Source: Candidatus Velthaea sp. (GTDB taxonomy: Bacteria; Vulcanimicrobiota; Vulcanimicrobiia; Vulcanimicrobiales; Vulcanimicrobiaceae). From it: DNA of 44,670 bases. A program made the position numbers and the translations under genes. Positions 18,153-43,550 of the stretch are shown here, in pieces. Below the pieces are notes generated by a model, which was given only the letters and a program-made list of their open reading frames with translations, was not told where the DNA came from and ran no database searches. The stretch lies in contig JBEKHC010000035.1 of NCBI GenBank assembly GCA_050012475.1, positions 1 through 44,670 on the forward strand, given 5' to 3'. Positions within the stretch are counted from its first letter, which is position 1. Each line of letters begins with the position of its first letter.

Positions 18153-19478
18153 ATGCTCGAGGCTCTGAGCGAGCGCTTAGGCGCGATCTTCGGCCGGATG
18201 TCCAACCGCGGCCGTCTCACCGAGACGGACGTCGCTGAAGTCTTGCGTGAAGTTCGCGTCGCTCTGCTCGAAGCCGACGTCTCGCTCAAGGTCGCCAAAG
18301 ACTTCGTCAACGCGATCAAAGAAAAGGCGACCGGCGTCGATGTCGCCGCATCGCTGACGCCGGCCCAAACCATCATCAAGATCGTCCACGACGAACTCGT
18401 CGAACTCATGGGCGGCGCGCAAGCGCGGCTCACGTACAGCGACGCGCCGCCGACGATCTACATGCTCGTCGGTTTGCAAGGCTCGGGCAAGACGACGCAC
18501 GCGGGCAAGATCGCGCTGCGCCTCAAGGAGCAGGGCCGCCGGACGCTCCTGGTTGCTGCCGACGTCTACCGGCCCGCGGCGATCGCACAACTCCAAACGT
18601 TGGGCAAGCAAATCGACCTGCCGGTCTTTGCCGCCGGCCAGGGCGATCCGGTTCAAATCGCGCGTGACGGCGTCGCCGAAGCTAAGCGCCTAGGCATCCC
18701 GACCGTCATCATCGACACGGCCGGGCGTCTGCAGATCGACGACGCGCTGATGCTCGAACTGGAAAACATCAAAGCCGCGGTGCATCCGATCGAGATTCTG
18801 TTCGTCGCCGATTCGATGACCGGTCAGGAAGCCACCAACGTTGCGAAGGTCTTCAACGACCGGCTGGGCATCACGGGCGTCGTGCTCACCAAGATGGATG
18901 GCGATTCGCGCGGCGGCGCTGCGCTCTCCATTCACAAAATTACTGGGGCGCCGATCAAGTTCGTCGGCGTCGGCGAAAAGCTCAGCGCGCTCGAGCCGTT
19001 TTATCCCGACCGGCTGGCCAAGCGCATCTTGGGCATGGGCGACGTGCTCACGCTCATCGAGCGAACGCAGGCGGTCTATACCGAGCAGCAAGCCAAAGAC
19101 ATCGCGCAAAAGCTGCGCAAGTCGGAATTCACGCTCGACGACTTTCTCGAGCAATTGCGTCAGGTTCGCAAGATGGGCTCGATGAACGACATCATGAAGA
19201 TGATTCCGGGTTTGTCGAAGGCGTTGCCCAATGTCGACATTGATGAGCGCGACGTCAAGAAGGTCGAAGCGATCATCTGTTCCATGACGCGGCGTGAGCG
19301 GTCGCGTCCGGAGATTCTTAATGGGTCTCGGCGGAAGCGGATTGCGGCTGGGAGTGGGACGCAGGTTGCGGATGTTAATCGGTTGGTGAAGCAGTTTGAG
19401 GCTTCTCGGCAGATGATGAAGCAGCTTGGGGGTGGGCGCGGGTTGCGGGGGTTGAAGTTGCCTGGGTTGGGGAAGTGA
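18153..19478 (+). CDS. ffh: Signal recognition particle protein
   Basis: GLQGSGKTT, DVYRPAA, DTAGR, TKMDGD.RGG, Met-rich M domain, SRRKRIAAGSG. Confidence 0.97.
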   Translation: MLEALSERLGAIFGRMSNRGRLTETDVAEVLREVRVALLEADVSLKVAKDFVNAIKEKATGVDVAASLTPAQTIIKIVHDELVELMGGAQARLTYSDAPPTIYMLVGLQGSGKTTHAGKIALRLKEQGRRTLLVAADVYRPAAIAQLQTLGKQIDLPVFAAGQGDPVQIARDGVAEAKRLGIPTVIIDTAGRLQIDDALMLELENIKAAVHPIEILFVADSMTGQEATNVAKVFNDRLGITGVVLTKMDGDSRGGAALSIHKITGAPIKFVGVGEKLSALEPFYPDRLAKRILGMGDVLTLIERTQAVYTEQQAKDIAQKLRKSEFTLDDFLEQLRQVRKMGSMNDIMKMIPGLSKALPNVDIDERDVKKVEAIICSMTRRERSRPEILNGSRRKRIAAGSGTQVADVNRLVKQFEASRQMMKQLGGGRGLRGLKLPGLGK

Positions 19479-19494
19479 CCCCGGTTGGTGGCGG

Positions 19495-19640
19495 GCTTGG
19501 GGCGGGGTCTTGGCCGGTGGCCGGGACGCCCGCGATTTCCCATCCTTGGGAAATCGCTGCTACCGAAAAATTCGCTCTCGCCATCCTGGCTTCGCGAATT
19601 TGTTCGAGTCCCGGCCACCGGCCAAGACCCCGCCCCAAGC
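19495..19640. repeat. Perfect 33-bp inverted repeat around an 80-bp core with two inner hairpins (MITE-like or structured element)
   Basis: GCTTGGGGCGGGGTCTTGGCCGGTGGCCGGGAC (19495-19527) and its exact reverse complement (19608-19640); inner GCGATTTCCC/GGGAAATCGC and AATTCGC/GCGAATT. Confidence 0.9.
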
Positions 19641-19689
19641 ATCAGGCCGGTGGGTGGCGGCCTCCACCCACGTGGGGTGGTGCGGGCCG

Positions 19690-19895
19690 GTGGACCGCTG
19701 GTGCGCTTGACCGTTGCTGCGCTCCGGGTGGGGGGCGAGTTCGTGGACCGCGGGTGCGCTTGGCCGTCGCTGTACTCCGGCGTGGGACGAGTTGGTGGAC
19801 CGCGGGTGCGCTTGGCCGTCGCTGTACTCCGGCGTGGGGCGAGTTGGTGGACCGCGCAGGTACGCTCGGCCGTCGCTGTGCTCCGGCGTGGGGTT
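19690..19895 (+). repeat. Tandem repeat, four copies of about 52 bp
   Basis: Units GTGGACCGCGGGTGCGCTTGGCCGTCGCTGTACTCCGGCGTGGG(A/G)CGAGTTG start at 19690, 19743, 19795, 19847; outer copies diverged. Confidence 0.9.
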
Positions 19896-19976
19896 GGCGA
19901 GCGGGCTATGGCGGGGCGAAGATTTTACACTGAAAGTGCCACGTTTTTGTGGGCTGGCTAGATAGAGAGTAAGGTT

Positions 19977-20270
19977 ATGGTTCGTATACGGTTGCGTCGG
20001 ATGGGCGCGAAGAAACAGCCGACGTATCGGTTCGTCGTGAGTGATGCGCGGTCGCCCCGGGATGGGCGCTTTATCGAGATTTTGGGACACTATAATCCGC
20101 GGACGGAGCCCAAGACGGTTGTCGTGAACGCCGACAAGGCCAAGGAGTGGATTGCCAAGGGTGCGCAGCCGTCCGATCCGGTTCGGCGGTTGTTTGCCGA
20201 GCTTGGTATCGTGGAGCGCGGTTTCGTGCCTGAGACCAAACGCCGGCCTAAGTCGGAGAAGTCCGAGTAG
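19977..20270 (+). CDS. rpsP: 30S ribosomal protein S16
   Basis: [44 protein letters not shown]. Confidence 0.97.
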
Positions 20271-20274
20271 TTTC

Positions 20275-20808
20275 GTGTCGGCTTTCGACGACGAGTTTGG
20301 CCTGTTCGGCGACGAGACTCCGGAAGAGGATGAACGCCGTTCGACGCTGGGGGCGCGCAAAATCGCCACCGGTGAAACCATCATTGACGAGATCGAACCT
20401 GAAGACGAGCGGCCTGCCCGTCCGCGCCGCAACAGCGGCAGCGGCGAGCGGTTTGTTCCGCGCGAGCGGCCATCGCGTCAGCCGGCCGATCCAGCCGCAA
20501 CCCAGGCGCGTGCGGCCGGGCTGCTCGAGTTTTTGGCCAAGAAGCTCGTCACGAGTCCGGACAAGGTCGTTGTCCGGCAGACCGAGGGTGACCGCGGACC
20601 GATCATCGAGCTGGAAGTCGATCCCGACGATCTGGGCAAGGTCATTGGCCGCGGCGGCCGGGTTGCGCAAGCGCTGCGCACGCTGGTTCGCGCGAGCGCC
20701 GAAGGCCGGGTGATCGTTGACATCGTCGACGTCGATCAAGACGACGTCGAAGAAGAGTCGGATCTCGAGCATACCCCGCCCGCTGACGAGGCCTCCGCAG
20801 ACGAGTGA
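20275..20808 (+). CDS. khpA: KH-domain RNA-binding protein (KhpA/YlqC type) with long terminal extensions
   Basis: ELEVDPDDLGKVIGRGGRVAQALRTLV; conserved position between rpsP and rimM; GTG at 20275. Confidence 0.88.
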   Translation: MSAFDDEFGLFGDETPEEDERRSTLGARKIATGETIIDEIEPEDERPARPRRNSGSGERFVPRERPSRQPADPAATQARAAGLLEFLAKKLVTSPDKVVVRQTEGDRGPIIELEVDPDDLGKVIGRGGRVAQALRTLVRASAEGRVIVDIVDVDQDDVEEESDLEHTPPADEASADE

Positions 20809-33679: not shown

Positions 33680-33764
33680 GGGTTCCGACTTCGTCGGAAC
33701 CCGTGGCGTTTGCGGCTGCGCCGCCAGCCGCGCGTGGCGTTCGGCGCTGCGCGCCCAGCCGCGG
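33680..33764. repeat. REP-like cluster of short hairpins
   Basis: GGGTTCCGAC-ttc-GTCGGAACCC then GTGGCGTTTGCGGCTGCGCCGC and GTGGCGTTCGGCGCTGCGCGCC; related to 43437-43550. Confidence 0.65.
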
Positions 33765-41832: not shown

Positions 41833-42123
41833 CTTGGCCGGACGTTGTCCGGCCAAGAATAACGACGACCGGGGATCCGTCGAGCGGGGTGCGGCGGATT
41901 CCATCCGGACGATATGGGTCCGTTTCCGTTTCGCTCGACGAATCCAAAGGATTGCGGCTACGCCGCAATCCTTTGCGTTTGGGTGCCCAAGCCGCAGGGT
42001 TCGGGCGGGCGGGCGGGCGGGCGTACCGAGCGCAGCCGAGGGCGCCCATCCGAGCGAAGCAAAGGGCGCCCGTCCGAGAGAAGCCGATGGCGCCCATCCG
42101 AGCGAAGCCGAGGGGCGCCATCC
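41833..42123. repeat. Intergenic hairpin cluster, (GGGC)5 run and four 24-bp tandem repeats
   Basis: TTGGCCGGAC/GTCCGGCCAA and CAAAGGATTGCGGC-tac-GCCGCAATCCTTTG hairpins; CCGAGCGAAGCCGAGGGCGCCCAT-like units at 42026, 42050, 42074, 42098. Confidence 0.85.
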
Positions 42124-42156
42124 ATGTCATGGTTTGTTCGACAAGTCGGATACGTG

Positions 42157-42924
42157 CTAGGGAGTGGGTCGCGGCAACGGGACGGCCGTTGGCGAAGCCA
42201 GCAACTTGGGGTCCGCCGGCGCGAGCGGAAACGAAAAGTTGTCGAAGGTCGCATTGACCGTAAAGTGCGTCTGCCCGATGTGGAATGGCGCGAAGAAGGT
42301 TCGCGTGTAATACACGTGACTCACCAGCCAATGCGTTTGAACCGTCGTATAGTCGATGGTGAATTCGACGTCGTCGTGGCCCGTATACGTTACGCGGAGC
42401 GGCAGATTGGTGGCCGTGTCGATGTACACCTCGTGCAGGTAGAAGTCCGAGTTGTTATTGGTCGTTAACGCCCGCAGCGGTTCCATGATCAAATGGGCTT
42501 TGGTATCCGTCGAGTCCTCGGCATAATGCGCGTAATAATTGCGCAGCGTCGTCGCGACGACCGTCACGCCGGGGGTTGTTGCGTGCGGAGCCGAAAACGT
42601 GATCGGTGCGTAGGTCGTGACGTGCGAAAGCAGATTCCGATGCTGCGCGCCGTTGTAATCGATGCGGAAATACGACAGCGCATCGAATGTGGGAATGAGC
42701 GGAAAGCTTTGACCGTATTGCCGTTGTCCGCGCGGCAGGTCTTGCAGGACGGCGAAGTCGTCGGCCGTGCGCGTTTCGACCGCGCGCTCCACGGTCTTGT
42801 GCTTCTTGAGCGCGGGGACGTCGATGTCCGCGACCGTGTGGTAGGCCAAATACGGCGGCGGCTGCCGATATTGCTCGGCAGCAGCGTTAGCGGCAAGGCG
42901 AAAAAGCACGTCGGCGGCGACCAT
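42157..42924 (-). CDS. Hypothetical beta-rich protein
   Basis: 255-aa ORF with coding-like codon usage; TAGACT 6 nt before ATG and no SD suggests a leaderless transcript. Confidence 0.7.
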   Translation of the reverse strand: MVAADVLFRLAANAAAEQYRQPPPYLAYHTVADIDVPALKKHKTVERAVETRTADDFAVLQDLPRGQRQYGQSFPLIPTFDALSYFRIDYNGAQHRNLLSHVTTYAPITFSAPHATTPGVTVVATTLRNYYAHYAEDSTDTKAHLIMEPLRALTTNNNSDFYLHEVYIDTATNLPLRVTYTGHDDVEFTIDYTTVQTHWLVSHVYYTRTFFAPFHIGQTHFTVNATFDNFSFPLAPADPKLLASPTAVPLPRPTP

Positions 42925-43010
42925 GCCAGTAGTCTACGAAAACGCCGACCGAAATCTCTTTCTGCGGCACCGGAAGGGGCAGCTTGCGCCGGGCGGCAAG
43001 TCGTGCGCGT

Positions 43011-43436: not shown

Positions 43437-43550
43437 CCGGATTCGACTGCGCGCAATCCATGGCGTTTGCGCTGCGCGCAAGCCGCGTGGCGTTTGCGGC
43501 TACGCCGAACCCGTGGCGTTTGGCGCTTCGCGCCGACCCGCGCGTGGCGC
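43437..43550. repeat. REP-like cluster of short hairpins
   Basis: Three TGGCGTTTG units followed by GCGCTGCGCGC, GCGGCTACGCCG and GGCGCTTCGCGCC; related to 33680-33764. Confidence 0.65.

Follow-up and report, generated by a model that had tools for sequence, protein, structure and literature searches.

GRINS, described in 2021, are regions of working genes with abrupt, correlated GC and TA skews that are strongest at third codon positions (PMC8256042). The accessible text of that paper, the closest known account of the pattern reported here, defines them as duplicated coding regions of more than 500 bp and more than 80% identity under gene conversion, suggests error-prone synthesis or deamination of single-stranded DNA as their cause, and mentions skewed regions present in single copy. 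The same text describes replication-strand skew, in which the leading strand is G/T-rich. Palindromic repeats form a further point of comparison, namely the short extragenic REP and REPIN sequences that occur with RAYT/TIRYT transposases, for which the accessible portions of two sources describe no skewed flanks (PMC3116915; PMC3733652).

We analyzed a contiguous stretch of 44,670 nt (the window) from the genome of a Candidatus Velthaea sp., designated G000 and about 94% complete. Between ffh and rpsP the window carries a branched hairpin element, and third codon positions of the genes on both sides are shifted toward G and T on the plus strand. Gene names in the window were checked with NCBIfam, and the locus is laid out as follows.

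18153..19478, plus strand: ffh, signal recognition particle protein, 441 aa (TIGR00959 above cut-off; 94-96% identical in three congeners)
19284..19475, plus strand: skewed ffh tract, 63 of 64 codons ending in G or T, with a sharp onset some 240 nt to the 5' side of the element core
19428..19451, plus strand: G-quadruplex-type motif within the ffh tract, one of 4 in the window and absent from the three congeners' loci
19495..19640, minus strand: branched hairpin repeat element, 146 bp, with a long outer stem and a conserved two-hairpin core (the minus strand folds better)
19495..19527, no strand: left arm of a 33-bp perfect inverted repeat, its sequence variable between copies
19532..19557, no strand: core hairpin 1 with a CATCC-type loop, from the fold and copy comparison
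19564..19606, no strand: core hairpin 2, which bears the other CATCC-type loop and, on the minus strand, an internal loop rich in purines
19608..19640, no strand: right arm of the inverted repeat
19689..19893, plus strand: 52-bp tandem array, 3.9 copies, G/T-rich, seen at the ffh-rpsP locus only
19977..20270, plus strand: rpsP (ribosomal protein S16), third positions G/T-skewed (+0.26, z 5.4 for the whole gene)
20275..20808, plus strand: gene for a KH-domain RNA-binding protein, start codon approximate, skew almost gone (+0.07, then +0.04)

Measured in 150-nt windows, 19284-20270 is skewed to the extent that the accessible text describes for GRINS (|GC| 0.26, |TA| 0.23), and as in GRINS the shift falls on third positions (0.1-0.2) rather than on positions 1-2 (about 0.01). 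In contrast to GRINS as defined there, the DNA that is skewed here is not duplicated. It flanks a small distinct element, relative to which its polarity is fixed and from which the skew decays with distance; a BLASTN search of 19001-20400 against the genome matches only the element core of about 100 bp. The element itself recalls REP/REPIN as portrayed in the accessible portions of those papers. It is palindromic, sits just after stop codons, occurs as singles, inverted pairs and tandem copies, is patchy among relatives and inherited at the same sites, and is multicopy, with 8 places in G000 and 32 matches in the complete chromosome G007/G041. It differs from REP in its branched core with variable arms of fixed length; inspection by eye found no common arm end of the terminal GTAG/CGTC kind, and the genomes richest in copies hold no Y1 transposase of the RAYT sort. 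A literature search that lacked most subscription papers and supplements found no account of the element or of skew halos anchored to repeats.

The element-anchored halo is real, strong and reproducible, a skew-driven recoding with an anchor in cis. The skew now has an address, namely a 146-bp element with fixed polarity, measurable decay and orthologous sites with or without it, so that the cause of GRINS-like skew becomes directly testable by experiment. To the earlier descriptions we add this defined element, the with/without orthologues, a replication control, strand evidence from arm mismatches and a lead to dnaE2.

The skewed tract and its hairpin element

The sequence-only reading of this DNA had found that, of the final 55 sense codons in ffh, 54 end in G or T. 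That count is exact (from 19311: G 37, T 17, C 1, A 0), and the onset in fact lies earlier, the best change point being codon 378 at position 19284. The same reading was right that the protein is conserved and that the earlier part of the gene is rich in C-ending codons, the first 386 having C 173, G 139, T 41 and A 33 at their third base (47% G/T). Under the genome's own codon usage 26.9 G/T endings would be expected among the 55 tail codons, and the probability of at least 54 is 2e-18 for this stretch of codons taken singly. When 4215 genes, called genome-wide with a simple model of our own, were scanned in amino-acid-corrected 50-codon windows, the ffh tail was the top outlier (z 8.1; runners-up +5.2 and -5.3), such skew being rare elsewhere in the genome. 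At C7:4879-5295 of G000 third positions are nearly all C (z -5.3), with the element not nearby. The bias continues into rpsP and then fades, as had been noted, from an excess of +0.31 in the first half of the gene to +0.22 in the second and +0.07 in the first 60 codons of the gene that follows. The protein encoded by the latter has a long acidic N-terminal extension, its KH match covering only residues 84-155 of 177.

Chance or a chimeric assembly has a negligible probability as an explanation: although no one contig spans the entire stretch, the switch point in ffh is crossed by contigs from three of four runs belonging to different studies (with 1, 9 and 0 differences, the fourth run not covering this point; one run is possibly the window's source), so the tract is not a chimera, and in addition Ffh is close to its congeners' proteins and the effect recurs at more than 100 loci. 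The copy number of the tandem array varies among related strains, with joints skipping 51 nt in three of the four runs. Elsewhere in the window, GC skew is elevated at 42001-43000, and tandem copies of other repeat families lie at 42026-42123, 33702-33763 and 43447-43533; two of these families are among the genome's commonest (24-28 loci), and the families as a whole have weak skew only.

As DNA the element folds with -78 kcal/mol (z -12), and it also folds well as RNA. The Rfam covariance models hold no family for it, the only match, of 12 bits where the cut-off is 40, being due to chance. Arm length is 31-35 bp in 75 of the 110 copies with measurable arms. Between copies of the complete chromosome the arms are 68% alike and the first 36 core bases 98% alike. 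Read on the strand that carries GGGACG (plus at this locus), 275 arm mismatches include 138 C.A against 29 G.T, and in 96-97 of 102 copies it is the opposite strand that forms the better fold; together these two asymmetries point to the minus strand as the structured or specially treated one. The fixed arm length, the conserved loops and the concerted change of the arms suggest, from sequence comparison, a protein that recognizes the core. On the minus strand the loops read GGA, as CsrA sites do, but at least 25 copies have a loop without GGA. Three copies in G000 (L042, L043 and L046, on C79, C80 and C96) have a second small repeat nested in their CATCC-type loops.

Association of the skew with the element

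The core pattern has at least 118 matching stretches in the genome collection, with titles almost all from Vulcanimicrobiota/Eremiobacterota, and 109 matches in metagenomes; a comparison with viral contigs gave no match. Of 161 genomes from the phylum it is present in 16, every one within the window's family, and the repeat family is found only in this family of soil bacteria (Vulcanimicrobiota). A count over 95 genomes of the bacterial family gives 15 that match the pattern and 80 that do not. G000 has ten nhmmer matches at eight places and one partial copy, the copies adjoining glyS, atpG-atpD, ftsX, infB-rbfA, thiolase and nifH-like genes, rplU and one more. Across about 140 loci the neighbors are housekeeping genes, barring one IS110 and one MazF-type cassette, and neither a recurrent mobile gene beside these loci nor a split element enclosing an ORF was found. 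At L126:3001-3876 two inverted element copies flank a segment of about 840 bp that contains a MazF/PemK-type toxin gene, an arrangement resembling a small composite cassette. In G001 the atp region with its element is present twice (L033 and L035), near-identical, inverted and 116 kb apart, as a duplication or an assembly artefact.

The skew is associated with these copies. As the sequence-only reading had expected of a genome-wide comparison, |z| exceeds 3 in 7 of the 13 gene flanks beside the element in G000, against 90 of 7408 other flanks. A generic gene-end effect was rejected, ordinary gene ends having an excess of only +0.006, and other abundant repeat families reach about +0.03. The G-quadruplex was rejected as the cause as well, because 49 of 53 loci lack the motif and 43 of these 49 are still skewed; the motif at 19428..19451 is probably a by-product of the skew. 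The tandem repeats, which together with the palindrome had been proposed as the center of the footprint, are indeed present in the spacer beside the inverted repeat, but the array is private to the ffh-rpsP locus and was likewise discarded as a cause. Tandem repeats of any kind occur in 7 of 34 downstream spacers and in 159 of 1636 control spacers, a weak excess.

Orthologous sites with and without the element place the gain of skew in particular lineages. G/T endings among the 55 ffh tail codons number 54 in the window, 39 in G003, where the element is present, 36 and 31 in the congeners without it, and 18-30 in a further 26 genomes, which are more distant and have short spacers (a range unchanged if the unpublished genomes G022 and G036 are left out). 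The end of glyS stands at -0.19 beside an antisense copy and at -0.01 to +0.08 in four orthologues without one; the end of ftsX at -0.27 with the element and +0.05 to +0.16 without; and the start of atpD at +0.13 to +0.20 in four genomes with the element and -0.02 and -0.04 in two without. Most relatives that lack the element are thus unskewed, as a link between the two would predict. Some sites are skewed with no detectable element or only a remnant of one, namely rbfA (+0.18) and ftsX (+0.16) in G001 and a nifD-like gene in G002/G003 (+0.20/+0.25), and we read these as what may be left by an element since lost. Three copies (L072, L079, L150) have no halo or a reversed one, and the C161 pair shows no clear halo on its single measurable flank.

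These orthologues also bear on whether the sites might be intrinsically skewed, with the element inserting or persisting there. We regard that order of cause as very unlikely: the recurrence of the same sites across genomes (infB-rbfA, atpG-atpD, hslU, topA) and the few skewed orthologues without an element would suit it, but it accords poorly with the unskewed majority, with the normal ffh tails of genomes that carry the element elsewhere (G017 22, G019 23 and G007 25 of 55), and with a polarity that tracks element orientation even at one site found with either orientation. Two spacers, at ffh-rpsP in G001 (L002) and at L068 in G002, are G/T-rich and of low complexity with no recognizable core, and are possibly remnants after element loss. 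At L038 in G002 a different CATCC-looped element has strongly G/T-rich flanks, and the orthologous gene end in G000 (C171:5764-8343) is also an outlier (z 4.5).

Polarity, decay and direction of change

The halo is polar and extends over genes of both orientations. Among 68 single-copy intergenic loci (of 80 fetched with flanks), the excess at 0-150 nt downstream on the GGGACG strand is +0.20 in same-strand genes (18/20 loci) and +0.16 in opposite-strand genes (15/15), declining to +0.04 and +0.02 at 2-3 kb. A repeat on 63 of 80 further metagenome loci, ungrouped by orthology and bringing the other loci to 131 in total, gave +0.16 (22/27) and +0.14 (24/25). With orthologous sites grouped, the excess is positive in 40 of 44 groups downstream and in 13 of 46 at 300-1000 nt upstream. 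The mean profile switches once: it is weakly negative between -1600 and -300, passes through zero around -200 and reaches +0.15 to +0.18 immediately beyond the element. Of 66 loci, 18 have an upstream switch that is significant by itself, placed between -57 and -562 and strongest in ffh (-234); among 587 control gene ends the rate is 2.7%. The G/T excess starts 0-350 nt 5' of the core and fades over about 2 kb on the 3' side, with a weak mirror-image zone farther 5'. The sequence-only reading had described a footprint of about 1 kb in two essential genes, centered on the spacer repeats. Both genes are skewed as it said, but the zone is larger, at about 2 kb, and off-center, with an average onset about 200 nt 5' of the core. 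Because the halo lies mainly to the 3' side, rpsP is its typical part and the ffh tail an extreme case of its short upstream part.

Replication direction does not set the halo. The G/T excess resembles replication skew in lying on the strands that run 5'-3' away from the switch, as across an origin, but it is 10 to 20 times stronger, spans only about 2 kb and is present against the chromosome's own leading strand. In the complete chromosome, with replichores estimated from 34 sampled segments, the downstream excess is equal at leading-oriented copies (+0.062, 18/21) and lagging-oriented copies (+0.066, 6/11), over a background of about 0.02; the upstream flank is -0.097 at lagging-oriented and -0.016 at leading-oriented copies. 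Strand-coordinated mutation clusters around DNA breaks, seen in yeast and as kataegis in cancer, resemble the halo in that their strand bias switches once, about a fixed position. They differ from it in that damage to resected 3' overhangs predicts a sign opposite to that of the average halo, and in that the halo is a long-term silent-site footprint rather than a single burst.

Gene orientation matters in some zones. Convergent genes alone carry the downstream excess in the complete chromosome (+0.099, 17/19; same-strand genes +0.012, 7/13). The near-upstream zone also depends on orientation, at +0.04 for sense genes (33/49 positive) and -0.15 for antisense genes (1/10 positive). From these two patterns, transcription plays some part. 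If RNA polymerase stalled at the element, or if transcription began within it, the non-template strand could be exposed in an R-loop and enriched in G/T, deamination of that strand being established; the upstream gene is on the skewed strand at 51 of 63 classifiable loci, and the capacity of the element to fold as RNA would also suit such a process. As the main source of the halo we nevertheless consider this rather unlikely. Opposite-strand genes on both sides of the copies on C79 and C96 of G000 follow the polarity of the element, the better-folding strand is antisense to most upstream genes, no sigma-70-like promoter was found within the element, and the largest net excess among substitutions is C-to-G.

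The direction of change is likewise toward G and T. In ffh codons 387-441 all 16 lineage-specific changes yield G or T (six are G>T, five C>T and three C>G, with A>G and T>G once each), whereas 25 of 54 changes in codons 132-330 yield A or C. Polarized against relatives over five genes, a comparison that the sequence-only reading had proposed, changes near elements number 94 from A/C to G/T against 19 in reverse, and in far zones 129 against 87 (p 1.2e-5). The largest net excess near elements is C>G, at 45 of 112 ancestral C against 39 of 238 far from them. The near zones were picked after the skew was seen, and divergence at silent sites is about 40%; the spectrum therefore describes net change, not raw mutation. 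At four-fold sites of 68 loci it is chiefly C that is lost from the element strand. Deamination, which that reading had offered as the source, does not by itself yield this spectrum, given the prominence of C-to-G and the six G-to-T changes in the ffh tail. Loss of mismatch repair was rejected, mutS being intact in G000; NucS was not found in that genome. In G078 (C5:198602-201008) the mutS match is split over several frames, possibly through an error in sequencing.

Total change per site is barely higher near the element (128/333, 0.38) than far from it (233/697, 0.33), as might be expected if selection favored G/T on one strand beside it, for instance for antisense termination sites or to avoid pairing with the element. 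The opposite strand, C-rich and G-poor, is also reminiscent of Rho utilization sites. Such selection is improbable all the same, for the decay is smooth over 2 kb, all codon families are affected and the first position of Leu TTG/CTG is shifted with them (0.43 against 0.30), spacers are G/T-rich too (26/34), rarely used codons are pushed into essential genes, and the sign differs between congeners at one site. The silent-site composition of ffh, rpsP, infB or atpD can be set by an adjoining repeat, and can thereby mislead codon-usage, selection and tree analyses of these marker genes.

Proposed mechanism and candidate enzymes

In our best explanation, to which we give a probability of about 0.5, the hairpin is likely a non-autonomous mobile element, probably nicked by a protein, whose flanks are re-made or left single-stranded with a bias to G/T. 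Of this account we infer the mobility, the protein recognition, the nick and the chemistry. A protein would recognize the core and cut one strand; the flanking DNA would repeatedly be re-made, or left single-stranded, outside normal replication; and the strand running away from the cut would gain G/T, losing C and some A. Chemically, the newly made strand might take up wrong bases or the displaced strand might be damaged, two routes that these data do not separate; both wobble-type misincorporation and displaced-strand damage are established chemistry. Purifying selection would then clear away most changes to the protein, and the silent sites would be left saturated. The sequence-only reading had proposed that the plus strand is repeatedly exposed or mutagenized, by way of a cruciform, R-loop, G-quadruplex, nicking site or error-prone resynthesis. 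A strand-specific footprint tied to the element and gained in this lineage is indeed present, and among those causes nicking with error-prone re-synthesis would fit best; the generic cruciform and the G-quadruplex fail the controls.

The folded strand could also act alone, blocking replication so that host repair fills the gaps or breaks with biased errors and no dedicated protein takes part. The fold is very stable and one strand folds better in nearly all copies, which on this account would make the halo asymmetric; lagging-oriented copies have the stronger upstream skew, and a dedicated enzyme was not found. Against these points, other hairpins of the same genome with 26-37-bp arms have |z|>3 in 0 of 15 flanks, compared with 5 of 11 for the element family (the control hairpins being few and of unmatched stability), and the fixed arm length and conserved loops suggest recognition by a protein, so that structure without such a protein appears unlikely.

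Returning to the nicked-element reading, we searched for a partner enzyme among the Y1 transposase, reverse transcriptase and GIY-YIG families and found none. The Y1 transposase PF01797 was not found in G000, G001-G003, G007 or G135 (genomes that are partly incomplete) and does not track the element (it is present in 3 of the 19 genomes with the element and 3 of the 31 without). Reverse transcriptase PF00078 was discarded as a partner as well, with matches in 6 of the 19 genomes that bear the element, in 2 of the 31 that do not, and in neither G007 nor G135; the element accordingly lacks the linked reverse transcriptase of a retro-element. GIY-YIG was rejected because it occurs in 50 of 50 genomes irrespective of the element. 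The polymerase gene dnaE2 is similarly widespread, being present in 48 of 50 genomes regardless of the element. All seven intragenic copies found are in-frame in dnaE2, within two hypervariable loops and in both orientations (L088, L130, L148, L137, L343, L351, and the dnaE2 of G007/G041 in L207). Of the genomes checked, 3 of the 19 with the element have such a copy and none of the 23 others does; extra copies lie just upstream of dnaE2 in G007 and upstream of imuA-imuB-dnaE2 in L136. The two loops range from 14 to 196 aa and from 20 to 67 aa and seem to gather other repeat families too, and the dnaE2 of G000 carries no copy, so the link is only a lead and DnaE2 only a candidate for the polymerase behind the skew. 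DnaE2 may have a C:G-to-G:C signature, which we do not count as evidence. The accessible part of PMC7198004 does not state this signature.

A bolder form of the nicked-element reading, to which we give a low probability, would make these miniature elements portable polar mutator sites. The CATCC-type loops would direct a nick at least about one arm-length from the core and recruit the ImuA-ImuB-DnaE2 polymerase; this would then overwrite the arms, together with some 2 kb of the host's DNA, in a G/T-biased way and recode essential genes. If so, GRINS-type skews would acquire a defined trigger in cis, and the in-frame position of all seven intragenic copies in dnaE2 would be explained. Apart from dnaE2, the replicative dnaE of G000 (C72:8964-13751) contains an insertion of several hundred residues that is intein-like by its appearance.
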